Below are positions 5,241 to 60,363 of a stretch of DNA of 64,000 nucleotides, one piece after another. This DNA comes from an uncultured Ruminococcus sp. (GTDB lineage Bacteria > Bacillota > Clostridia > Oscillospirales > Acutalibacteraceae): positions 9,626 through 73,625 of the forward strand of contig CADCHW010000001.1 in assembly GCA_902801245.1 (NCBI GenBank). Reading direction: 5' to 3'. The translations under genes were made by a program, and so were the position numbers. The first letter of the stretch is position 1, and every line of letters begins with the position of its first letter. The notes below the pieces were generated by a model. It searched no databases. It worked only from the letters and a program-made list of their open reading frames with translations, and was not told the origin of the DNA.

Positions 5241-5267
5241 ATTATACTAGGGTTTGAAAAGATTTAT

Positions 5268-5518
5268 CATTTTAAAGTTTGGTCAAGCTTTTCAAAGCTT
5301 GCGGGGTGCAGGGGCAGAGCCCCGCTCGCTGACGAAACCAACTTGCAAAGAAAAGTAAACTACCCTCAGCGAAACTAAACAAACTATGCTTAGAAAATAA
5401 AAATAAAAACAAAAACATATATAAAAACGTATCTATCTGTACAAACCAACAAAGGCAACAGCGTAGCGAATTGCCGGTCGAAGAAAGAAATTGGACGATT
5501 TTAAATTCAACCGTACAG
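5268..5518 (+). repeat. Family A intergenic repeat, copy A1 (lacks the left terminal inverted repeat)
   Basis: Shares the ~115-nt core and the GGCAACAGCGTAGCGAATTGCCGG block with copies at 40027, 49742, 58250(-) and 60124; right end CAACCGTACAG. Confidence 0.85.
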
Positions 5519-5925
5519 GTAGAATAATTTACATAAGGGGACAAAAGCCCTCCTTGTATTGATTAATGATTTTAACGGTAAGTATTTTCAGATAAGAGAG
5601 AAAAACATTAAAATGATTAATTGTTAGTATATAATTTCTTCGGTGGGTTCGGTGGGTTTCTGGGTTTTTTATATTAATTGTTAAGAAAAAAATAAAAATT
5701 AAAAATATATAAGACTTATTGAAAAAGGGTGCGAACCCACCGAACCTACCGAGGGTAAGCCACTCTCAATATACAATGATTTTATAAAATTGTATATTTC
5801 AATATTTTTGTAAGATATTATAAATTTAAATGCAAATATTTTAAATTGTAATGATATATTGATTAGAAGAGTGAAAGGTGAATAAAGAGTTTAACTTAGG
5901 TTAGTGTAAATAGGGCATTGTACGC

Positions 5926-12251: not shown

Positions 12252-13469
12252 ATGAAAAATAAAAAGCTTTTATCGTTAGTGTTATCTATTGTAATGCTTA
12301 TTCCGACACTATGCTTGCCTTTAAACGCAAGTGCGGCAGAAATCGACTATGTATATTCGGAATCGTATAATTCGGAAGATATAAAATTAATCGAGCCGTC
12401 GGGTGCGGTGTCTAATGTTTCGGTTGATTCCAATGCCGTAACCACTTTGAGGAATGCTCTTCGCAGCCACGAAACACAATCTGTTGTGAAAATTCCTTTT
12501 CCGTCTGTTCCCGTAACAACGGTTTCTGTTAATGTAAAACTGGATAAACCCTCGGATAGTGAGTATTGCAGGGAATATATGCGTACACTTTTTTATAAAG
12601 CGGTCGAGCATACGGGGAATCCCATTGAGGGAGATTATATTCTCCGTCAGATGTCCGAATATGAATGCAGTGTGGAATCTCAGGCAAACGGGAAAAGTAA
12701 GCTCACATACAAGGTGACTTTCTTTACCAACAAAGAAAAAGAAGATGAACTTAATAAAACAGTAGATACAATTCTTAAATCTCTTAATCTTAATGGAAAA
12801 TCCGACTACCAGAAAATTAAAGCAATTTACGATTATCTTTGTACGAATGTTACATATCATAATCTTGATTTCCTTGTTGCAATGTCAACAAATGCCTATA
12901 TTTATTTTCCGACTGCCCATTCCGCATACGGTGCTTTGCAAAATAACAGTGCCGTTTGTCAGGGTTATGCGGTTGCATTTTACAGACTTGCACTTTCGGC
13001 AGGCATTGACAGCCGTGTTATTTTCGGTACAGCTTCGGGCGGAGGACATGCTTGGAACATAGTTAAGCTTGACGGTAAATATTATCTTCTTGATTCAACT
13101 TGGGACGCAGGTCAATCCGAGTACAAATATTTCTTGAAGAGTGAAAAGGATTTTCCCGACCACATCCCCGACGATGAACATAAAACAGCTTCATGGAAGA
13201 GTTCCTATCCCATTTCAGCTACATCTTATACAGCTTCTGCAAAAGCTCCCGTTTATGATACAATAGGTGATGTTGACGGTGACGGCTCTATAACGGCTGC
13301 GGATAGTCTTAGTGTACTTAGAATTTCCGTTAAGCTTGAAACAACAAGCCATACAAAATTAGCCGACGTTGACGGAAACGGTTCAATAGACAGTGCCGAT
13401 GCACTTGATATTTTGAGATATTCCGTTCATTTATCCGCTAATTCCAACATTGGAAAGAAAATTAAATAA
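12252..13469 (+). CDS. Secreted transglutaminase-like cysteine protease-fold protein with C-terminal dockerin
   Basis: Signal peptide; CQGYAVAF...GGHAWN...DSTWD Cys-His-Asp core; two dockerin repeats DVDGDGSITAADSLSVLR and DVDGNGSIDSADALDILR. Confidence 0.8.
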   Translation: MKNKKLLSLVLSIVMLIPTLCLPLNASAAEIDYVYSESYNSEDIKLIEPSGAVSNVSVDSNAVTTLRNALRSHETQSVVKIPFPSVPVTTVSVNVKLDKPSDSEYCREYMRTLFYKAVEHTGNPIEGDYILRQMSEYECSVESQANGKSKLTYKVTFFTNKEKEDELNKTVDTILKSLNLNGKSDYQKIKAIYDYLCTNVTYHNLDFLVAMSTNAYIYFPTAHSAYGALQNNSAVCQGYAVAFYRLALSAGIDSRVIFGTASGGGHAWNIVKLDGKYYLLDSTWDAGQSEYKYFLKSEKDFPDHIPDDEHKTASWKSSYPISATSYTASAKAPVYDTIGDVDGDGSITAADSLSVLRISVKLETTSHTKLADVDGNGSIDSADALDILRYSVHLSANSNIGKKIK

Positions 13470-13483
13470 CGCTATAAATCATC

Positions 13484-13528
13484 AGTCTGCCGTATACAGT
13501 GAAAATATTGTATACGGCAGACTTTTTA
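13484..13528. terminator. Bidirectional terminator between convergent genes
   Basis: 14-bp perfect stem AGTCTGCCGTATAC/GTATACGGCAGACT followed by TTTTT. Confidence 0.75.
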
Positions 13529-13529
13529 T

Positions 13530-15362
13530 TTACACTATTTCAACATTATATTTCTTAAACCAATAGTCAATCTCCGCAATATATGCCAAAATCTGAGGAG
13601 CTCTCATAAGCTGACCGTACCACGGCGATGAAATATTATCGGGATTACGGATTATTTCGAGAATACCGTCCTTGTTCAAAAATTCGTTTAAAGGTGAAGA
13701 TTTATCTTCGAGTACTCTTATTGCACCCTCGGAGGTAAGCTTCATATATAAGGGATTGTGAGTTTTCGGATAGGGACTTTTCTTTCTCCAAGTGATTGTT
13801 TCGGGGAGCAAATCGGAAAATGCTTCACGAACAATGCCTTTTTCACGACCGTTCAAAGCCTTTAAATCCCACGGCATATTGTAAGCGTAACTCACAATTC
13901 TGTAGTCGCAGAACGGAACTCTGACCTCCAAACCGTTGTACATTGAACAGCGGTCTTTTCTGTCAAGGAGCGTCTGCATAAACCAATTAAAATTGAGCAT
14001 AAACATTTCACGCATTCGCTTTTGGTGAGGAGTATCGGAGGGGAGAGTGTCTGTTTGACTTACGGTTTCGCTGTAACGTGTGTGAACATATTCCTCGCCG
14101 TGCGGCAGAAATCCGTCTTTAAGAATGCTTCGCCTGATAGCCTGCGAACGTGACCACGGAAAACATTCTTCAAATAAAATATCCTTATTGTGATACCACG
14201 GATAACCGCCGAATAATTCGTCCGCACACTCACCCGAAAGAGCAACGGTAAAATCTTTCTTAACCTCACGGCAGAAAAGCAGCAGGGAAGAGTCAACATC
14301 AACCATACCGGGCAAATCACGGGCATTTACGGAATCAAACAAGGCGTTGTACAAATCGGTATTTTCCAAAATTACTTGATGATGATTAGAACCTATGTGA
14401 TTGACCATAATGTCGATAAAATCTTCGTCCGAGTTCGGCTGAAAAAGACTTTTTTGAAAGTACTTTTTATTATCAACATAGTTTACCGAATATGTGTCAA
14501 GAACTTTATTTTTAGCTTTAAAATAATTTGCGGCGACATTTGAAATAATACTGCTGTCAAGACCGCCCGAAAGAAACGTGCAAAGGGGAACGTCACTGAC
14601 AAGCTGACGTTCAATTGCATCTGTGAGGAGATAGCGAACGTGTTGGATAGTTTGTTTGCGGTCATGAGTATGCTCGGCAGCGGTTATCTTAAAGTAACGT
14701 TTCTTGTCAAGCTTGCTGTCTTTATAAACCGCACATTCGCCGGGGAGAAGCTCTCCGACACCTTTGAAAATTCCGCCTCCGTTAGTCCGCCCCGGACCTA
14801 TAAAGAAAATTTCCATAAGCCCCTCTTCGTCAATCTGCGGCTTAACAAGAGGATTCGCAAGCAGTGCCTTAATCTCAGAGCCGAAGAGAATACCGCCGTC
14901 ATATTTATAATAGAAAAACGGTTTAACCCCAATAGGATCTCTTGCCATAAACAGGGAGTTATCACGGCTGTCGTAAACCGTAAACGCAAAAATACCGTTC
15001 AGCTTTTCAACGCACTTTTCGCCCCATTGAATGTATGACTTTAAAAGTACCTCCGTGTCGGAATGACCGTTGAAGCTGTGACCGTGTGACAGTAAATCCC
15101 TGCGTAAATCCTCGGTGTTGTACAGCTCGCCGTTGTATACAAGAGTAATATTCTTGTCACCGAGTGTGGCACTCATCGGCTGCTTTCCCGTTTCGGGGTC
15201 GATTACAGTAAGCCGCCTGTGAAGCATACACACATTATTTTCAAGATATATGCCGTGTTCATCGGGACCACGGCGGCAGAGAGTTTCACTCATTCTTTTG
15301 ATTGTGTCGATATTTCCGTCAATGTTTTCTCTGTCGGAAAACCAACCTGCAATTCCGCACAT
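13530..15362 (-). CDS. asnB: Asparagine synthase (glutamine-hydrolysing)
   Basis: N-terminal MCGIAG Ntn-amidotransferase start; SGGLDSS PP-loop; 610 aa. Confidence 0.88.
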   Translation of the reverse strand: MCGIAGWFSDRENIDGNIDTIKRMSETLCRRGPDEHGIYLENNVCMLHRRLTVIDPETGKQPMSATLGDKNITLVYNGELYNTEDLRRDLLSHGHSFNGHSDTEVLLKSYIQWGEKCVEKLNGIFAFTVYDSRDNSLFMARDPIGVKPFFYYKYDGGILFGSEIKALLANPLVKPQIDEEGLMEIFFIGPGRTNGGGIFKGVGELLPGECAVYKDSKLDKKRYFKITAAEHTHDRKQTIQHVRYLLTDAIERQLVSDVPLCTFLSGGLDSSIISNVAANYFKAKNKVLDTYSVNYVDNKKYFQKSLFQPNSDEDFIDIMVNHIGSNHHQVILENTDLYNALFDSVNARDLPGMVDVDSSLLLFCREVKKDFTVALSGECADELFGGYPWYHNKDILFEECFPWSRSQAIRRSILKDGFLPHGEEYVHTRYSETVSQTDTLPSDTPHQKRMREMFMLNFNWFMQTLLDRKDRCSMYNGLEVRVPFCDYRIVSYAYNMPWDLKALNGREKGIVREAFSDLLPETITWRKKSPYPKTHNPLYMKLTSEGAIRVLEDKSSPLNEFLNKDGILEIIRNPDNISSPWYGQLMRAPQILAYIAEIDYWFKKYNVEIV

Positions 15363-18174: not shown

Positions 18175-19251
18175 TTATGCTCCGAAAAGTTCGGCAATTG
18201 CACTTTCTGAAATCTTAGAACCGATTACGCAAAGTCTGCCGATAGTTCCTGCTGTGCCTGTTCTTACATCGGGTTCGCCCGGAACATAGTCAAAGTGAAT
18301 CCATGCACCGTCTGTACCCTCAACAATACCCTTTGCACGAAGAATAATGCCGAACTTCTCCTCGTTTGCAAGCTCGTTCAAGGCTGCCGTAATATCCTCG
18401 GCTGTGAACTTCTTTGTAGTTTCAACACCCCAGCTTGTGAATACTTCGTCGGCATGGTGGTGATGATGATGTCCGTGTTCATGGTCGTGGTCGTGATGAT
18501 GTTCATGCTCATGGTCGTGATGATGTTCATGCTCATGGTCGTGGTCGTGGTCGTGGTCATGGTGATGTTCATGCTCATGGTCGTGGTCATGATGATGTCC
18601 GCAAACAGGGCAAACGTCCTCTTCTTCTTGTAGTTTTTTAAGTGCCTCTTCGAGAGTATTTTTATTTTCGATAGCAAGAACAATCTGTTCACCGCTGAGG
18701 TTATCCCAGTCGGTAGTGATAAGCTCTGCCTTTGCGTTATGCTCTCTGAGAAGCTTTACGCATGCAGCAAGTTTTTCGTCCGAAATATTTTTGGTATGGC
18801 TGAGAACAATCGCACTTGCGTGTTCAACCTGATTGTTGAAAAATTCGCCGAAATTCTTGATGTACATTTTGCACTTATTAGCGTCAACTACCGTTGTAAA
18901 GCTGTTGAGAACAATATCATCTGAATGAATATTTTCAACTGCGGCAATAACGTCACTGAGCTTGCCGACACCCGACGGCTCGATAATGATTCTGTCCGGT
19001 GAGTACTGAGCAAGAACCTTTTTGAGAGCCTCGCCGAAATCGCCGACCAAACTACAGCAAATACAGCCGGAGTTCATTTCCGTGATTTCAATGCCTGCGT
19101 CCTGCAAGAAACCGCCGTCAATGCCAATCTCGCCAAATTCGTTCTCTATAAGCACAAGCTTCTCGCCGCTGTAAGCTTCGGCAATAAGCTTCTTGATTAG
19201 CGTTGTCTTACCTGCTCCGAGAAAACCGGAGAAAATATCTACTTTTGTCAT
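18175..19251 (-). CDS. COG0523-family (CobW/ZigA/YciC-like) metallochaperone GTPase with a long His-rich insert
   Basis: GFLGAGKTTL P-loop; GCICCS CxCC motif; roughly 45-residue H/D/E run (HHHDHDHEHEHHHDHDH...HHHHHH). Confidence 0.85.
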   Translation of the reverse strand: MTKVDIFSGFLGAGKTTLIKKLIAEAYSGEKLVLIENEFGEIGIDGGFLQDAGIEITEMNSGCICCSLVGDFGEALKKVLAQYSPDRIIIEPSGVGKLSDVIAAVENIHSDDIVLNSFTTVVDANKCKMYIKNFGEFFNNQVEHASAIVLSHTKNISDEKLAACVKLLREHNAKAELITTDWDNLSGEQIVLAIENKNTLEEALKKLQEEEDVCPVCGHHHDHDHEHEHHHDHDHDHDHEHEHHHDHEHEHHHDHDHEHGHHHHHHADEVFTSWGVETTKKFTAEDITAALNELANEEKFGIILRAKGIVEGTDGAWIHFDYVPGEPDVRTGTAGTIGRLCVIGSKISESAIAELFGA

Positions 19252-40026: not shown

Positions 40027-40365
40027 TAGTTGTACGGTTGCGAAGCTTGTTAAAGTTTGGTCAAGCTTTTTAAAGCTTGCGGGCGACGGAACACCCCAAG
40101 AAGTCAAGCCGTTAGGCGTAGACTGATTGGTAGGTGTTCCTAGCGGTCTTGCACCATGCAGGGGCAGAGCCCTTGTCGCTGACGAATCCAACTTTCAAAG
40201 AAAAATAAACTACCCTCAGCGAAACTAAACAAACTATAATTAAAAAACAAAAATAAAAGCCTATATAAAATGTATCTTTCGATTAAAACCAAAACAGGCA
40301 ACAGCGTAGCGAATTGCCGGTCTAAGAAAGATATTGGACGATTTTAAATTCAACCGTACAGCTAC
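40027..40365 (+). repeat. Family A repeat, copy A2: complete, with terminal inverted repeats and a 9-bp flanking direct repeat
   Basis: Left end TAGTTGTACGGTTG, right end CAACCGTACAGCTAC; AAATTTTTT at 40018-40026 and 40366-40374; carries an extra ~73-nt hairpin at 40084-40156. Confidence 0.85.
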
Positions 40366-40392
40366 AAATTTTTTACTTAAAGGAAGAGGATT

Positions 40393-44023: not shown

Positions 44024-44112
44024 TGATTGTTATTGTCTTTAATAAATTCAATAACAATAAACTTTGGGCGGGGTATACAAAGCTGAAATAAAAAATGCTT
44101 CACGTGTTTCCC
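44024..44112 (+). repeat. Family B repeat, right-arm fragment (B5) overlapping the 3' end of the Uma2 gene
   Basis: TGATTGTTATTGT...AACTTTGGGCGGGGTA...GCTTCACGTGTTTCC parallels the loop and right arm of B2. Confidence 0.6.
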
Positions 44113-44654
44113 GTTACAGTTAGGTGACAAATTGTAATTTCAAGTTGTCCGTTGTATATTCCGACAGGTATTGAATCATTGAAAGTATACGGAGTACAAA
44201 TATAATTGTCTGCCAAGCGGTAAACTATAACCGTTTCACGCTGAGGATTTACTATCCAATATTCTCTGACACCGTATTTGTTGTACAAATTTAGCTTGTA
44301 AACATAATCGTGTGAAAAGTTGCTTGAAGTTATTTCAACAATCCAGTCGGGAGCACCTGTGCAGCCTTTTTCGGTTAGCTTGTCGGGGTCGCATATAACG
44401 GAAATATCGGGTTGAACAACCGTATCGTCCGAAAGCTCAACGTCAAAAGGAGCAACATAGACCTCGCATTTACCTTTGTTTTTTTCAATAAAATTCTGAA
44501 TGCTGTAGGAAATTCTGGTTACAAGCTTTTGATGAATCCTCAGCGGAGCAGGCGACATATCATAAATAATTCCCTCGATAAGTTCAACCCTGCTGCCCTC
44601 GGGGAGTGAGTAATAATAATCCTTTGTGTAGAATTCCAATTTTTCTGCCAACAT
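44100..44654 (-). CDS. Uma2-family (DUF820) PD-(D/E)xK endonuclease-like protein
   Basis: VELIEGIIYDMSPAP...VVQPDISV...APDWIVEITS...YGVREYWIV pattern typical of Uma2. Confidence 0.8.
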   Translation of the reverse strand: MLAEKLEFYTKDYYYSLPEGSRVELIEGIIYDMSPAPLRIHQKLVTRISYSIQNFIEKNKGKCEVYVAPFDVELSDDTVVQPDISVICDPDKLTEKGCTGAPDWIVEITSSNFSHDYVYKLNLYNKYGVREYWIVNPQRETVIVYRLADNYICTPYTFNDSIPVGIYNGQLEITICHLTVTGNT

Positions 44655-44737: not shown

Positions 44738-44917
44738 AAGAAGACAGTCTTTTTAAGAAATAGCTTCATCTACCCGACCGAAAGTATTTGGTATGATTGT
44801 TATTGTACTTCATAAAGTTGGTCAAAAATTGCCGCATTAAAATCAACTTTCGGTCGGGTAATAAAAGTTACGGATAAATCAAACTGTCTACACGTGTTTT
44901 CTGTCGGCATTGCCGAC
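44738..44917 (+). repeat. Family B palindromic repeat, full copy (B2)
   Basis: GAAGACAGTC...CCCGACCGAAAGT / ACTTTCGGTCGGG...ACTGTCTACACGTG, then hairpin GTCGGCATTGCCGAC. Confidence 0.8.
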
Positions 44918-44922
44918 CCGAC

Positions 44923-45858
44923 TTAATTTTCGGGGACAATTTTAACAACCGCCGTGCTGCTGTAAACAAGCGGATTGCTGTGAGAAAAGAAAATCGTACC
45001 GGTACACGGAGCAATAATTTTCTCCGTAATCTCACCCGTGTAAGGGTCAATTATTCTTGCAAGCAAATCGCCTGCCTCGGCTTGCTGACCCGATTGCAGA
45101 ACAGGTCGGTAAATACCCGAATGGGTGTTGCGGACATTTACCATATCCGTATTCCAAAGCAGCTTTGAGTGATAGCCTGCATTTGTGCTGACACTCTCGT
45201 CAATAACTCCGATACACTTCAAAAAGTGCAGAACACTCTTTATACCTTGCTTTGCACTTGCTTCATCGATATCGGCAGTAGTTGTTGTGTAAACGCTGTA
45301 AGCTTTTGTTTCCCAAAGCTGCCAGTTGTAGTTCAAAGTGGTAGTGTCATAAGGACGAACCTTTCTCCGCACAACATAGGGCATACCGAAAAGCTTCGCC
45401 TGTTCCACGTCCTCTTCGCCTGTTGACATCATTCTGATATGCGGAATAAATCTTCCCGGCATATAAAAGCTGGTGAACTGAATACCGTACTTGTAACTCT
45501 TGATATTCTCAAACAAACCTGCCGCAATTCTCTGAGTAGTTTCGCCCACATCATAGCCGGGGAACATTCTGTTAATGTCGGTGTTGTCGATAGGCCAGAA
45601 CCGCTTCTCAGTGTTTATGCTTCTCGGGTTGGCACAGGGGATAACGGTTATTTTCTTATCCTTGACAATAGCACCCTTTTGTTCCAGAATATTCAACTCT
45701 TTAACAAGCTGACTGCAAACGTAAGTCTGCTGTATCTCGTTTCCTCTCAGGCTTCCCAGAATGCAGACGGATTCTTCACCCGAACCGAACTCGAAAGCTC
45801 GTGCCCTCATATCATCTCTGTAAAGTGTTTTTAACTCGTAAATAATTTTTTCTCTCAT
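44923..45858 (-). CDS. AstE/AspA (succinylglutamate desuccinylase/aspartoacylase) family paralog with substituted metal ligands
   Basis: Same-length paralog of the upstream gene; GSLRGNEIQ in place of GTHGDELEG and IQFTS in place of IDIHAS. Confidence 0.7.
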   Translation of the reverse strand: MREKIIYELKTLYRDDMRARAFEFGSGEESVCILGSLRGNEIQQTYVCSQLVKELNILEQKGAIVKDKKITVIPCANPRSINTEKRFWPIDNTDINRMFPGYDVGETTQRIAAGLFENIKSYKYGIQFTSFYMPGRFIPHIRMMSTGEEDVEQAKLFGMPYVVRRKVRPYDTTTLNYNWQLWETKAYSVYTTTTADIDEASAKQGIKSVLHFLKCIGVIDESVSTNAGYHSKLLWNTDMVNVRNTHSGIYRPVLQSGQQAEAGDLLARIIDPYTGEITEKIIAPCTGTIFFSHSNPLVYSSTAVVKIVPEN

Positions 45859-46811
45859 ATTTTCAATTCTCTTCCCGGTAAAATTCTTCCGATTAACGAA
45901 CCCTCGTCAACAATGGGATATTCTCTGATTGTGAAGAGAATACCGTCACAGTCGGCAGTCACAGTCGTTAAGACCTTTCCCGACAGCGGGTCGATAATAT
46001 CGCCGATATGCTGACCCTCGGTGACGTTCGTCCAGTGCTTTGTGTGAGCAACGAACAAACCCGACTTCTCGGCATTCAAAAATGAAATGGGGTCTTCATC
46101 ATAAACCACAAGCGGCTTGCGGACGTTCGGAACTTCACCGCTCCACATTCCCAGCGATGACATAAGATTGAAAATTCCGTCCGTAAGCTGTTCGCAGTAG
46201 GATTTTGTTATCCTCATTCCAACACCCATTTCAACAACCAGAGTAGGCACTCCCACAGCGTTCATAGAGTGTGCCAGAGTAGATTCGAGTACAGTCGCCG
46301 ACGGGTGAACCCATATCAAATCAATATTTATTTTCTCGGCAATCGGAACAAGCTTTTTACCGAAAATAGTGTTGATTCTGACCTGAGGTATTTCCGTAAG
46401 AAAAATATTGCTTGCATGAATATCTATGCAAACGTCCGAACCCTCCAAATCCGTGACAATACCGTTTGCGATATGCTCAAGCATATAACCCTCGCTGTCA
46501 CCGGGGAACATTCTGTTCATATCCAAATCGAATGCGGGAATACCTCTTGTAATGGAATCAATGCCTATGGGATTGATAGCCGGATAGATGTCTATAATTC
46601 CGTTTAGGCATTCGGGGTGTTCATTAATTCTTTTCTGAACAAGATAGCATACATACTGACCCTCAAGCTCGTCACCGTGAGTTCCTGTTACAATGCTTAT
46701 TCTTTTTAAGTTATCGGTGTTCTCGGGGGCAATACGATTTTTCTTGATTCTTAAACTTTCATCACAGGGCAAATCAGCCTGCGTTACTGTTTGTATCATG
46801 TACTTCCTCAA
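45855..46811 (-). CDS. AstE/AspA-family zinc deacylase (M14-like)
   Basis: GTHGDELEG (HxxE) and DIHAS metal-site motifs; ATGA overlap with the downstream paralog. Confidence 0.8.
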   Translation of the reverse strand: MRKYMIQTVTQADLPCDESLRIKKNRIAPENTDNLKRISIVTGTHGDELEGQYVCYLVQKRINEHPECLNGIIDIYPAINPIGIDSITRGIPAFDLDMNRMFPGDSEGYMLEHIANGIVTDLEGSDVCIDIHASNIFLTEIPQVRINTIFGKKLVPIAEKINIDLIWVHPSATVLESTLAHSMNAVGVPTLVVEMGVGMRITKSYCEQLTDGIFNLMSSLGMWSGEVPNVRKPLVVYDEDPISFLNAEKSGLFVAHTKHWTNVTEGQHIGDIIDPLSGKVLTTVTADCDGILFTIREYPIVDEGSLIGRILPGRELKI

Positions 46812-47580
46812 CTTTCACATATATTTTCTGCGACTGAGTACCGCTGCCACGGAATATTCCTCTGTTGACGCTGCAATCGGCACTGTCACGTCCTGTGGAA
46901 ATAACGATGTGATTTTCGCTGACCTCCACATCATTAGTAGGGTCTAAGCCGTACCATTTGCCGTCCGAGTAAATCTCCGTCCAAGCGTGAGTTTCACCCT
47001 CACCCATAAGCAGACCCGTCACATATCGGCAGGGAATACCCAGACTTCGGCAAATCGAAAGCATTGACTGTGAGTAATCCTGACACACTCCTTTACCGAG
47101 TGCAAAGGATTCCTCCGCACTTGTAGCAATGCTTGTCGCTTTGGGAACGTATTCAAAGTGCTTGTAAACCTCGTGCATAATATAGCGTGATTTTTCAAGG
47201 TTGTCACCCTCGGGCAGACTGAGCTTCTTTCGGAACTCAGTCAATGATTCTCCCGATTTTGTGAGAGGTGTCTGCACTTTGAACAGTCCAAGCATAGACG
47301 GATTCACGTCCTCATCGTAAAATCCGCCGTTCATCTCGCACACACCCTCCACGGTTACACTGAACAGGGTGTGTTCTTCTGAAATACTGCCGTATCGGGT
47401 AAGGTTTCCGAAACCGTCCGTGCCGTCGGACAGCTTAACATTCGGGGTAATCTCGAAGTTAAGTTCGCTCACTGTCTGACGGCTTCCCGACTTCGGCAGG
47501 CATTTCAGCTTAAAATTGTGATTAGAAATAGGGCTTGTAAACTCGATTGTCATATTGTAGTGAAACTTTAGTTTCTTCAA
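46774..47580 (-). CDS. Transglutaminase-like cysteine protease-fold protein
   Basis: GKGVCQDYS...THAWTE...DPTND Cys-His-Asp triad; N-terminal Bact_transglu_N-like region. Confidence 0.85.
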   Translation of the reverse strand: MKKLKFHYNMTIEFTSPISNHNFKLKCLPKSGSRQTVSELNFEITPNVKLSDGTDGFGNLTRYGSISEEHTLFSVTVEGVCEMNGGFYDEDVNPSMLGLFKVQTPLTKSGESLTEFRKKLSLPEGDNLEKSRYIMHEVYKHFEYVPKATSIATSAEESFALGKGVCQDYSQSMLSICRSLGIPCRYVTGLLMGEGETHAWTEIYSDGKWYGLDPTNDVEVSENHIVISTGRDSADCSVNRGIFRGSGTQSQKIYVKVEEVHDTNSNAG

Positions 47581-47581
47581 A

Positions 47582-48250
47582 TTATATCTCCACCAAACTT
47601 TCTATATTTTCTACAATATTATAATAGTCTACTTTTTCACTTTCTGCAAGCATTTTTATTTCTTCCAGCTTAAATTTATTGTAAGGAAGTCCGCTGACGG
47701 GCAAACGGTAGTATAATTTTGAGATTTCCTTACTAAGCTGTGCTCTCGGAACTTTGAGTCTTGCGTACAAATCAATACGTTCAAGACGTTTTCCTACCTT
47801 GATTGCATCTCGTGTACGCTTGCTGTCGATTGAATCGTCCATATATCCCCAGAAAGCGAGAATGTGGTCGATAAGCTTCTGAATCTCCAGCATAGGAGAA
47901 TGACTTTTTTCCGCTTTCTGAATGTCATACATGGAAAGCTGAATGTAGCTCAGACCGTCCGAGCCTATTTCGTCACGCAGAATAATGGCATTGTCATAAG
48001 CTCTTGTCATATTGCTGATAATACTGTCGGGGTTGTCATTGTCAAACGCATAGCTTTTGATGAAGTTGTCCTTTGAACCGTAGATATCGGGAATATTCAT
48101 ATCAATGCAGAATTTCTGATAACTTTCCGCAATCTCGTCAATCATTGTGTCATAATGATTTGCATAAAGCTTTACAGTGGTGTACACTCTCTCGGTGTAT
48201 CTTCCAAGCCAGAAAAGGCTGTCGTTTTGTTCTATCGTGATAATACCCAT
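47582..48250 (-). CDS. Alpha-E domain protein
   Basis: N-terminal LFWLGRYTER motif characteristic of alpha-E domains; adjacent to the circularly permuted ATP-grasp gene. Confidence 0.8.
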   Translation of the reverse strand: MGIITIEQNDSLFWLGRYTERVYTTVKLYANHYDTMIDEIAESYQKFCIDMNIPDIYGSKDNFIKSYAFDNDNPDSIISNMTRAYDNAIILRDEIGSDGLSYIQLSMYDIQKAEKSHSPMLEIQKLIDHILAFWGYMDDSIDSKRTRDAIKVGKRLERIDLYARLKVPRAQLSKEISKLYYRLPVSGLPYNKFKLEEIKMLAESEKVDYYNIVENIESLVEI

Positions 48251-49572
48251 GTGTCTTTAAATCCTCCGCCCTGTGATGAATTAACTATGAATGAATCGGG
48301 GTTTCTTGAATATCTTGTCAAGCCCGAACGCCAAACAAGCGGTTCGTCCGCCATAAGAACAAATGCTCTCAAATCGGCTTTTCTCGGAACGATATTGCCG
48401 TCATCGAGAATTTCCAAATCCTTGAAATCGATAACTTCCTGACCGATAAATCTTCTCGGTTCGCTCTTAAGGAGATTAATGAAATCTTCCTTTTCGGTAC
48501 TCGAAAGCTTGCTTCCGAAAACAACACCGTAACCGCCTGCTTCCGCAACATCTTTCAGTACGAGATTGTCGAAATTGTCGAGAACATATTTCATATCCTC
48601 TTCGTAGAAAGGAAGATATGTTGGAGCATTGTTAAGTATAGGCTCTTCACCAAGATAATACTTAATCATTTTCGGTACAAAATAATAGATACCCTTGTCG
48701 TCTGCCACACCGTTTCCGGGAGCATTGATAATAGCAACGTTGCCCTTTTTGAACACATCGAAAATATGAGGAATACCGATAAGCGATTCGGAATTGAAAT
48801 TTATCGGGTCGAGATACTCGTCACTGATACGTCTGTAAACAGCACCCACACGCTCTTTCTTGCCGCTTGCGTCGAGATAGTAAAGCTTGTCGTCCTCAAC
48901 TGTCAACGCATTGTTTGTGACAAGGTGAGCACCTGTTCTTTCTGCAAGATAGGAATGCTCAAAGTAAGCGGCATTGTATCTGCCGGGTGTGAGGATAACC
49001 GTGTGACCGCCGACATTGACGTTATCCATTGTACGTCTGAGTAGGTCGGCATAGTTTCTGTTGTCCTCGATAGCAGTGTTTGCGAAAACATCGGGAGCGG
49101 AGCGGCGGCACAAATCTCTTGCTATCATAGGGTAGGAAGCACCCGAGGGAACTCTGAGATTATCCTCCAGTATGTACCAGCCTCCGTCCTTGGACTGAAC
49201 AAGGTCAATTCCCGAAATGTGGCTGTAAATGTCGTTTACAGGGAAAGCTCCCTCCATTTGCGGCATATAGCCGCTGCTTGCAAAGATGAAATCTTCCGGT
49301 ACAATACCGTCCTTAACGATACTTTTCTTGCTGTAGATATCCTTTAAAAATAAGTTCAAAGCGACAACTCTCTGCTTTAAACCTTTTTCCAGTACCGCAA
49401 ATTCGTCTGCTTTGATAATTCTGGGAATTGAGTCAAACGGAAAAAGCTGTTCTTTAAAGGTGTTATTCTTGTATATTCCAAACTTAACTCCGTATCTTGC
49501 GAGAAGCTCATTGACGGAGTCGGTATATTCAAGAAGCTTATACATGTCTTCCATAAAATCACAACCTAACAA
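48232..49572 (-). CDS. Circularly permuted type-2 ATP-grasp protein
   Basis: 446 aa, composition and order as in CP_ATPgrasp_2 proteins; first gene of the operon; likely true start is the ATG at 49554 (MEDMYKLL). Confidence 0.8.
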   Translation of the reverse strand: MLGCDFMEDMYKLLEYTDSVNELLARYGVKFGIYKNNTFKEQLFPFDSIPRIIKADEFAVLEKGLKQRVVALNLFLKDIYSKKSIVKDGIVPEDFIFASSGYMPQMEGAFPVNDIYSHISGIDLVQSKDGGWYILEDNLRVPSGASYPMIARDLCRRSAPDVFANTAIEDNRNYADLLRRTMDNVNVGGHTVILTPGRYNAAYFEHSYLAERTGAHLVTNNALTVEDDKLYYLDASGKKERVGAVYRRISDEYLDPINFNSESLIGIPHIFDVFKKGNVAIINAPGNGVADDKGIYYFVPKMIKYYLGEEPILNNAPTYLPFYEEDMKYVLDNFDNLVLKDVAEAGGYGVVFGSKLSSTEKEDFINLLKSEPRRFIGQEVIDFKDLEILDDGNIVPRKADLRAFVLMADEPLVWRSGLTRYSRNPDSFIVNSSQGGGFKDTWVLSR

Positions 49573-49631
49573 AAAAACTAAAAAGGCAAAGACATCAATC
49601 GAATTTTAATCGATTTGACATCTTTGCCTTT
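49571..49631 (-). terminator. Intrinsic terminator (or stand-alone small RNA) in the leader of the ATP-grasp operon
   Basis: On the minus strand a ~21-bp stem (AAAGGCAAAGAUGUCAAAUCGA / UCGAUUGAUGUCUUUGCCUUU, two G:U pairs, one bulge) followed by TTTTTAGTTTTTTT, ending just before the start codon. Confidence 0.7.
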
Positions 49632-49641
49632 TACTTATTTA

Positions 49642-49670
49642 ATTATATTACTAATTTTTTTCTTTGTCAA
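49642..49670 (-). promoter_or_regulatory. Consensus sigma-A promoter directly upstream of the leader hairpin
   Basis: Minus strand TTGACA, 17 nt spacer, TATAAT; predicted TSS only a few nt before the hairpin. Confidence 0.7.
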
Positions 49671-49741
49671 TAAAAATTCCGACGAAAATAATGTTAATTT
49701 TGACAAACTTCTTGATAATTTTTGCTATATCTTTCGGCGGA

Positions 49742-49988
49742 GCGAAGCTTGTTAAAGTTTGGTCAAGCTTTTCAAAGCTTGCGGGGTGCAGGGGCAGAGC
49801 CCCGCTCGCTGACGGAAAAAATTTGCAAAGAAAAGCAAACTACCCTCAGCGAAACTGAACAAACTATCAACAGCAAAATAAAAAAACAATCATAAAAACA
49901 ATATGTTCCGACATAAATAAAAGCAGGCAAGAGCGTATCGAATTGCCGATTTTAGAAAGATAACTTACGATTTGATTTCGACTGTACA
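49742..49988 (+). repeat. Family A repeat, copy A3
   Basis: GCGAAGCTTGTTAAAGTTTGGTCAAGC... core plus the CAGGCAAGAGCGTATCGAATTGCCG block; ends ...TCGACTGTACA. Confidence 0.85.
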
Positions 49989-60123: not shown

Positions 60124-60363
60124 TAGTTGTTAGACTGCGAAGCCTGTTAAAGTTTGGTCAAGCTTTTTAAAGCTTGCGGGGTGCAGGGGCAGAGCCCCGC
60201 TCGCTGACGAAACCAACTGTCAAAGAAAAATAAACTATCCTCAGCGAAATTAAAAAACTATTAACAGCAAGCAATAAAAACAAATCCTATCCGCATAAAT
60301 AAAATCAGGCAACAGCGAAGCGAATTGCCGGTCGTGAGAAAGATAACCCACAATTACGCATTA
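60124..60363 (+). repeat. Family A repeat, copy A5 (divergent right end)
   Basis: TAGTTGTTAGACTGCGAAGCCTGTTAAAGTTTGGTCAAGC... core plus the CAGGCAACAGCGAAGCGAATTGCCGG block; ends in CACAATTACGCATTA. Confidence 0.85.

Follow-up and report, generated by a model that had tools for sequence, protein, structure and literature searches.

The gene triad for a circularly permuted (CP) ATP-grasp ligase, an Alpha-E protein and a transglutaminase-like protein is one of the most widely distributed bacterial clusters that lack a known reaction. Work on it dates from 2008-2009 and has mostly concerned the Anbu operon (CP ATP-grasp, Alpha-E, transglutaminase-like, Anbu), which was reportedly described by Valas and Bourne in 2008 and by Iyer et al. 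in 2009. A 2009 prediction assigned the triad to peptide synthesis or tagging, Anbu follows it in many bacteria, and the Anbu operon has been found in Proteobacteria, Cyanobacteria and others; the structural papers on Anbu reported neither peptidase activity nor stable complexes (PMC5666114, PMC6376114). The triads of Burkholderia and Pseudomonas putida are strongly NtrC/sigma-54 dependent or induced by nitrogen limitation (PMC5491218, PMC8050072). The Mycobacterium tuberculosis homologs Rv2411c and Rv2567 served only as negative controls for the synthesis of gamma-aminobutyric acid (GABA)-trehalose in a 2026 preprint, and were uncharacterised as of April 2026. A second system with a similar logic is RimK/RimB, in which an ATP-grasp ligase is opposed by a hydrolase within one operon, while the related RloABC includes a transglutaminase-like protein (PMC11957051). 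Here we describe a five-gene operon in which the triad is followed by two AstE/AspA-family proteins, AstE1 and AstE2. The operon lies in a stretch of 64,000 nucleotides, referred to as the window, from an uncultured Ruminococcus sp. (contig CADCHW010000001.1 of assembly GCA_902801245.1, positions 9,626 to 73,625). As the best explanation, held with somewhat less than even confidence, we propose that the five genes are transcribed together as one unit and that their products constitute a cytoplasmic machine for the making and breaking of amide bonds.

All five genes are on the minus strand of the window, and the open reading frames of the first-pass annotation, at 48232-49572, 47582-48250, 46774-47580, 45855-46811 and 44923-45858, are present. 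The CP ATP-grasp amide ligase (440 aa) is encoded at 48232..49554; its frame reaches back to a TTG at 49572, and the ATG at 49554 is most likely the start codon, the same choice being made by gene callers on identical public contigs. The gene for the short-form Alpha-E (222 aa, 47582..48250) overlaps that of the ligase by 19 nt behind a GGCGGAGGA Shine-Dalgarno sequence. After a 1-nt gap, the gene for the transglutaminase-like Cys-His-Asp protein with a Bact_transglu_N domain (268 aa, 46774..47580) begins at a TTG preceded by a GGTGGAG Shine-Dalgarno sequence. AstE1 (314 aa, 45855..46799), a zinc deacylase of the M14-like AstE/AspA family in which the catalytic set is complete, is joined by a 4-nt ATGA overlap to AstE2, a conserved, catalytically degenerate paralog of the same family (311 aa, 44923..45858). 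These three junctions, read directly from the sequence, are as first annotated. The remaining one, between the transglutaminase-like gene and AstE1, had been given as a 38-nt overlap from a TTG at 46811 and is probably one of 26 nt from the ATG at 46799, which has a GAGGAAG Shine-Dalgarno sequence 5 nt upstream and was chosen by gene callers on identical public contigs. A sigma-70-type promoter, TTGACA-17-TATAAT, is located at 49642..49670 (minus strand), agreeing with the consensus at 12/12 positions and forming the top site of the scanned region. Between this promoter and the start codon there is a terminator- or attenuator-like leader (49570..49632, minus strand) composed of a stem-loop at 49581-49632 and a T-tract, and the ligase start codon lies about 25 nt beyond it.

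For the species survey, one genome was taken per species, and the loci of the best 80 of at least 513 ligase-carrying genomes were scored with the five window proteins. Gut and rumen anaerobes with a close relative of the ligase amounted to at least 513 species-level genomes, and identity across the best 80 species was 77-88%. The five-gene unit was complete and colinear in 67 of the 80 loci, with differing flanks, while 10 loci were cut by a contig end and 3 contained one shortened gene. The two AstE genes, described at first as appended to the triad, accompany it in every informative locus of this clade: in all 70 such loci of the best 80, the five genes are present either as a set or as a copy in visible decay, and none is without the AstE pair. 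That 67 of 80 species-representative loci hold the whole colinear unit between differing flanks shows that it is not due to chance; since the flanks vary, the module is autonomous. Close relatives of the AstE1 subfamily and of the ligase number in the thousands among gut and rumen Clostridia, and three AstE1 homologs that were looked up, in Suilimivivens-like Lachnospiraceae and Candidatus Faecousia, stand within the same five genes in different neighbourhoods. The carriers are mostly metagenome-assembled genomes (MAGs) of Lachnospiraceae, Saccharofermentans, Acutalibacteraceae, Butyrivibrio, Roseburia and Blautia, together with two isolates, Eubacterium plexicaudatum ASF492 and Roseburia sp. 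1XD42-69. The feature is thus real, abundant and ancient within gut Clostridia.

Some loci depart from this pattern. At L004:5934-9918, compared with L005 and L006, a strain-level variant has lost alpha-E and retains its transglutaminase-like gene in truncated form only (126 aa), whereas the ligase gene and the AstE pair are intact; L017, L055 and L069 have one shortened gene each. These four loci look like occasional decay of the module. Ligases 77-82% identical to the clostridial ones were also observed in bins labelled as other phyla, namely Treponema MAGs (L079, L082), Prevotella (L030, L051, L076), Alistipes (L034), Muribaculum (L039) and Gastranaerophilales (L057), either through horizontal transfer or through binning error. 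L082 contains in addition a second, partial copy with a leader motif before an alpha-E gene at 13364-14171.

The domain families first assigned to the five proteins were all recovered as Pfam matches above the gathering cut-offs. The ligase is matched over its full length by CP_ATPgrasp_2 (PF14403, 2.7e-132) and also by CP_ATPgrasp_1 (2.9e-126), and its nearest solved structure is 3N6X (E = 2.9e-110), deposited as a 'putative glutathionylspermidine synthase', a name that is the depositor's guess and not functional evidence. It is the most conserved of the five, with about 80% identity to the window protein among relatives and 61% of positions at least 95% conserved. For Alpha-E (about 54% identity, 29% of positions), the Pfam Alpha-E profile (PF04168, 1e-21) is matched at positions 7-164 of 294 only, and the motifs WLGRYTER, RAYDNA and GKRxERxD are conserved in the orthologs. 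The AlphaFold2 model of Alpha-E is confident and all-helical (pLDDT 84.8, pTM 0.82), with no significant neighbour in a Foldseek search against the Protein Data Bank (PDB; best E = 1.2, TM at most 0.41) and no relative found among solved structures by sequence search. The overlap of the ligase and Alpha-E genes is maintained in relatives (median -15 nt between matches), and because of this conserved overlap Alpha-E is predicted to be a stoichiometric partner of the ligase. The transglutaminase-like protein is the most variable (about 38% identity, 18% of positions), with matches to Transglut_core (PF01841, 4.4e-23), Bact_transglu_N (PF08379, 1.3e-11) and PDB 3ISR (E = 4.8e-16). Its catalytic motifs GVCQD (Cys), SHAW (His) and DPT (Asp) are at least 95% conserved among 75 orthologs.

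The two AstE/AspA-type proteins had both been taken for zinc deacylases, a description with which the catalytic residues of AstE1 agree and those of AstE2 do not. AstE1 (AstE_AspA_cat, PF24827, 9.8e-22; about 62% identity to the window protein, 42% of positions at least 95% conserved) retains the H-E-H metal ligands and the catalytic Glu, the motifs HGDELEG, DIHASN and VVEMG being at least 95% conserved among 74 orthologs, and its PDB matches are 2QJ8, 3CDX and DoeB 6TWL. The characterised enzymes of the family, AstE (succinylglutamate desuccinylase), aspartoacylase and DoeB, all have small N-acyl amino acids as substrates, from which they free the amino acid at the end of nitrogen-yielding pathways. 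Against the NCBIfam equivalogs, AstE1 scored far under every cut-off, among them those for DoeB (46 against 402.7 bits), aspartoacylase (20 against 180) and AstE (17 against 306), and by these profile comparisons neither AstE protein is orthologous to AstE, aspartoacylase or DoeB. AstE2 (about 55% identity, 33% of positions in 69 orthologs) matches the same Pfam profile partially (1.2e-11, positions 4-141 of 192). Its first zinc His is replaced by Arg (SLRGNE) and its second by Thr, the catalytic Glu is lost, and only the ligand Glu is retained. The replacements, RGNE for HGDE and QFTSF for DIHAS, are themselves conserved motifs (RGNE, QFTSF, S.YT), and the carboxylate-binding region DINRMFPGY is kept. 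An exhaustive search of 1.84 billion representatives yielded 96 proteins of the AstE2 family at E <= 1e-30; full-length members are degenerate down to about 33% identity, and canonical HGDE/DIHSSN proteins reappear under about 31%. Because three of the four ligand or catalytic residues are replaced in the 69 orthologs and in these remote representatives, AstE2 is more likely a non-catalytic partner, and AstE1 is probably the sole catalytically competent member of the pair. The position of AstE2 is fixed after AstE1, with the genes overlapping or nearly abutting, indicating that the two may form a hetero-oligomer. A 102-aa frame that is 36% identical to the C-terminal part of AstE2 was observed at L089:6354-6662, and also in L091, L098 and L105, downstream of the leader motif and ahead of a ProC-like gene; it may represent a gene remnant or a domain that stands alone.

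On the basis of these components, we propose, tentatively and with a confidence that stays below one half, that a small acidic amino-acid conjugate is ligated, remodelled and hydrolysed in a cycle linked to nitrogen and glutamate. The ligase with its translationally coupled Alpha-E would join a carboxylate and an amine at the expense of ATP through an acyl-phosphate intermediate, and the product would most likely be glutamate or aspartate in a small conjugate, either N-acyl or gamma-linked. The transglutaminase-like Cys-His-Asp enzyme would then transfer or hydrolyse the amide through a thioester intermediate, while AstE1, probably as a hetero-oligomer with AstE2, would hydrolyse the N-acyl bond and release the free acidic amino acid. 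Expression would be gated by the terminator-like leader hairpin. The module may serve glutamate/nitrogen homeostasis or nitrogen salvage, because the hairpin of the relatives is common to genes of 2-oxoglutarate synthesis, amino-acid uptake and glutamine-dependent amidotransferases. A small-molecule substrate is supported by the action of the characterised AstE/AspA-family enzymes on small N-acyl amino acids, by the presence of DoeB among the PDB matches of AstE1, and by the operon, which in the window and in 67 loci has no room for a gene of a tag or precursor peptide. RimK/RimB offers a precedent for opposing an ATP-grasp ligase with a hydrolase (PMC11957051), and the response of proteobacterial triads to nitrogen limitation (PMC5491218, PMC8050072) favours the nitrogen link. 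A ligate-and-remove cycle had already been suggested in the first-pass annotation and is a reasonable proposal; that annotation did not include the ties to nitrogen, glutamate and 2-oxoglutarate metabolism, a likely third step catalysed by the transglutaminase-like enzyme, or the clade specificity of the AstE pair.

The same set of enzymes could instead tag and untag proteins or peptides, the ligase attaching a short tag or an amino acid to carboxylates or lysines of a protein, the transglutaminase-like protein acting as isopeptidase or cross-linker, and AstE1 and AstE2 trimming acidic residues in the manner of carboxypeptidases, as RimK and RimB do on ribosomal protein S6, or TTLL ligases and cytosolic carboxypeptidases on tubulin. 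Such tagging is a serious rival, even if we consider it rather unlikely. It would be in line with the original peptide-synthesis/tagging prediction for the triad and with the proteasome-like Anbu that follows it in Proteobacteria (PMC5666114, PMC6376114), as also observed in the Klebsiella locus, and RimK/RimB is a proven pair of ligase and peptidase (PMC11957051). AstE/AspA proteins belong to the M14 carboxypeptidase-like clan, several homologs being named 'M14 family metallopeptidase' by NCBI, and a conserved protein target would be in keeping with how very strongly the ligase is conserved. In contrast, no gene for a tag or target was detected in or beside the operon, the characterised enzymes nearest to AstE1 use small N-acyl amino acids and not proteins, and the recurrent neighbours are metabolic enzymes and transporters rather than ribosomal or proteolytic genes. 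Searches for protein complexes or peptidase activity of the Anbu operon also failed (PMC6376114).

The metabolic neighbours point to glutamate and nitrogen. Genes for citrate synthase (CS) and isocitrate dehydrogenase (IDH) adjoin or enter the module in 10 of the 80 loci, always co-directionally and in four arrangements: as an upstream operon, as the directly abutting upstream gene, 25-49 nt after AstE2 (L037, L052, L068), or inside the operon between the alpha-E and transglutaminase-like genes (L016:5583-8210, L045:8993-11584). The branch from citrate synthase to isocitrate dehydrogenase supplies, in these anaerobes, mainly 2-oxoglutarate for glutamate synthesis. A C26 gamma-glutamyl-type amidase adjoins the operon in 6/80 loci, a GlnQ-type ABC ATPase with a family-3 binding protein in another count of 6/80, and NadE and PurF in 2/80 each. 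These neighbours also bear on the recycling of cell-wall or gamma-glutamyl peptides, in which gamma-D-glutamyl or similar bonds of peptides that are imported or turned over would be cut by the M14-like and papain-like enzymes, the ligase would re-use the fragments, and glutamate and nitrogen would be returned to metabolism. Peptidoglycan stem peptides are common substrates of M14-like amidases and papain-fold cysteine peptidases, and the amino-acid/peptide-type ABC transporters and the C26 gamma-glutamyl-type hydrolase recur nearby with the same leader motif. On the other hand, murein-recycling genes (ld-carboxypeptidase, Mpl, amidases) do not recur in the flanks, signal peptides and cell-wall-binding domains were detected in none of the five operon proteins, and recycling leaves the role of the ATP-grasp ligase and Alpha-E unexplained. 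Recycling is a minor rival, which we regard as improbable.

The leader gives a second link between the operon and nitrogen-related genes. The window hairpin has a folding energy of -30 kcal/mol (z = -5.9), with none of 200 shuffles folding as well, and it is the positional counterpart of a conserved leader hairpin of the relatives. In most of them the hairpin lies between a TTGACA-type promoter and the ribosome-binding site, sometimes as a tandem duplicate, with the consensus RRAC(A/G)AAGGCGYT, a variable stem/loop and RRCGCCTTTT; instances are L013:6899-6947, L010:2756-2852, L033:1712-1762 and L103:8346-8377 (minus strand). Among 49 aligned instances the 13-bp stem was paired at 97.3%, compared with 35-65% in slid controls, and 114 double-change cells were counted in the stem against 30 in shuffles. 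Most of the compensatory changes are carried by the upper stem, which lay outside the rule used for selecting instances. The alignment thus provides evidence for selection on the structure of the leader hairpin.

A covariance model built on the hairpin detected the element in the operon leader of most loci. At sites on which it had not been trained, it detected the element directly upstream of CS-IDH operons, of GlnQ-type ABC transporter operons and of NadE, C26, AsnC and isochorismatase genes, and weakly upstream of PurF; the non-operon sites also have promoters upstream. In an independent metagenome scan with the exact hairpin core, 7 of the 17 matches were located before the operon and 10 before non-operon genes. 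Of the latter, two preceded a GlnQ-type ABC transporter, two a C26 gene followed by an IlvE-like gene, two a large binding protein with a LivH-type permease, and four, all of one sequence type, a frame resembling the C-terminus of AstE2 followed by a ProC-like gene. In L028, L033, L036, L040 and L042 no motif match was observed in the operon leader, and a co-directional GlnQ-type ABC operon is situated 2-4.5 kb upstream; since this upstream operon carries the motif in L028, L033 and L040, and weakly in L042, the transcription unit may be longer there.

A generic terminator was considered for the hairpin and rejected, because promoters stand before the non-operon sites and the genes after them make up a coherent set, and because none of the terminators of the 64-kb window scored above 15 bits. 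Rfam 15 covariance models gave nothing near a gathering score for the leader of the window, those of L004, L005 and L007 or the canonical leader of L013. As the leader is too short for an aptamer, a trans-acting factor likely acts on it, and the hairpin is a candidate for a new attenuator marking a nitrogen/glutamate regulon in Clostridia.

Several observations weigh against the proposed nitrogen-linked cycle. The CS/IDH association is found in only about 12% of the loci and could reflect co-regulation instead of shared chemistry. No nitrogen-related gene flanks the operon in the window itself, where the neighbours are LysR/MetE and Uma2 genes, and the window hairpin, keeping the position and shape of the element, is without the GGCGYT core and scores 11.6 bits with model R1. 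The regulon loci were sampled around the operon and so form a biased sample. As stated in the first-pass annotation, no substrate or product is defined for any CP ATP-grasp/Alpha-E/transglutaminase system in the searchable literature, nor is any activity, apart from the only biochemistry on record for the triad, ATP hydrolysis by the Yersinia ligase (PMC6376114). The Anbu or metallopeptidase in the fourth position elsewhere fits peptide or protein substrates equally well. AstE2 might have a non-canonical activity instead of being inactive. A fully specified version, in which the module makes and then dismantles an acidic amino-acid conjugate in response to nitrogen status, under a new protein- or RNA-dependent attenuator and with AstE2 as the pseudo-enzyme subunit of the deacylase, is unlikely in all its parts; an N-acyl glutamate from the citrate/2-oxoglutarate branch would be an example of such a conjugate.

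The immediate surroundings of the operon in the window bear on a further possibility, that of a locus for a secondary metabolite, for a ribosomally made, post-translationally modified peptide (RiPP) of the graspetide kind, or for anti-phage defence. Graspetides are built by ATP-grasp ligases, and the gene immediately downstream of the operon (44100-44654, minus strand), with its own promoter-like sequence, encodes a Uma2-family nuclease-like protein that matches the candidate defence family PDC-S03 of PADLOC at 2.1e-47. However, PADLOC matched none of the five operon proteins, and the Uma2 neighbour is not conserved beside the module in other genomes. A graspetide cluster was rejected, since a precursor-peptide frame is absent from the operon of the window and from those of the 67 loci, where the gaps are a few tens of nt or overlaps, and no exporter or immunity gene was detected; nor are a ligase identity of about 80% over hundreds of species and housekeeping flanks typical of such loci. 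This possibility is largely refuted, and its chance of being correct is very small. The LysR gene was likewise rejected as a dedicated regulator of the operon: it is paired with metE in the window, and LysR-type neighbours were found at only a few other loci and in differing positions.

Repeats noted on both sides of the operon in the first-pass annotation were confirmed by a repeat scan of the window. On the downstream side, an inverted pair of the short interspersed repeat ACCCGACCGAAAGT is located at 44772..44859; the repeat has 6 copies in the window (31608, 31854, 44772, 44846, 53426, 61556) against 0.31 expected, and belongs to a larger repeat family, D5 (31562, 31780, 55488). On the upstream side, between the LysR gene and the operon promoter, the segment 49729..49952 belongs to an interspersed, intergenic repeat of about 220-250 nt that occurs four times (5249-5524, 40027-40367, 49729-49952, 60124-60334; families D1, D3, D4). 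Its copies are 65-91% identical to each other and share a GC-rich palindromic core, and the repeat may be MITE- or REP-like. Farther away, at 18448-18609, a tandem repeat of GTG/ATG/GTC/TTC/CTC triplets with a period of 12-18 nt was observed, the opposite strand of which would encode a His-, Asp- and Glu-rich run, possibly a metal-binding segment.

If the fully specified version is correct, the widespread CP ATP-grasp/Alpha-E/transglutaminase systems, the Anbu operon included, would gain their first chemistry, and a new RNA element of nitrogen control would come to light. In the clostridial variant, Anbu is replaced by a deacylase family of understood chemistry with ties to genes of 2-oxoglutarate, glutamate and glutamine metabolism, and the list of candidate substrates is therefore sharply smaller. 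The shared hairpin is a candidate regulatory RNA for clostridial nitrogen metabolism, the control of which is poorly understood. The AstE2 pseudo-enzyme, the embedding of CS and IDH and the shared leader motif are concrete, testable leads, for which the two cultured carriers named above offer experimental hosts. No paper was found that joins an ATP-grasp ligase, a succinylglutamate desuccinylase and a transglutaminase, nor one on the AstE-pair variant of the triad, in a literature search that did not cover the 2009 prediction paper and its supplement.

How the operon compares with described systems can be considered enzyme by enzyme. AstE1 shares with AstE, aspartoacylase and DoeB the catalytic domain and the full H-E-H plus Glu set, and differs from them in being non-orthologous, in having a partner, AstE2, without the catalytic site, and in the absence of AST- or ectoine-pathway genes nearby. 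Glutathionylspermidine synthetase/amidase (GspSA) of E. coli unites an ATP-grasp-type amide synthetase and a papain-fold Cys-His amidase for hydrolysis of the same type of bond; in the operon described here the proteins are separate and not fused, Alpha-E and the AstE pair are present in addition, and no Pfam match to GSP_synth or CHAP was detected in the operon proteins. With RimK/RimB and RloABC of Pseudomonas, the operon has in common an ATP-grasp ligase and a hydrolase, here a putative one, that reverses its product. RloABC also contains a transglutaminase-like protein, which is membrane-bound and inactive, whereas that of the operon is predicted to be soluble, with its catalytic residues intact. 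RimB is a retropepsin while the hydrolase here is M14-like, no ribosomal-protein target is indicated, and a Pfam and NCBIfam scan of the operon proteins gave no match to the RimK or retropepsin families.

The closest system is the Anbu operon. The first three genes are the same known triad, as first annotated, in the same order and with the same coupled ligase/Alpha-E junction, and in both cases a hydrolase follows. Among four sampled distant triads, whose ligases are at most 45% identical to that of the window, an AstE-like gene was found in none (0/4): the triad is followed by Anbu in Klebsiella and by Peptidase_Mx and a giant transglutaminase in Caballeronia, and stands alone in Deinococcus and Paenibacillus. 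As these triads show four contexts, the hydrolase after the triad looks replaceable. The present operon has no Anbu, but an active and a degenerate AstE/AspA protein instead; its Alpha-E is of 222 aa and 78 bits, compared with 309-345 aa and 262 bits elsewhere; and its ligase is at most 45% identical to those outside the clade. The AstE pair and the short Alpha-E together define a clostridial variant of the triad. Nitrogen-linked regulation, demonstrated in Proteobacteria, is suggested here by the common leader motif, and what appears to differ is the mode of control, a leader hairpin in Clostridia in place of NtrC/sigma-54.

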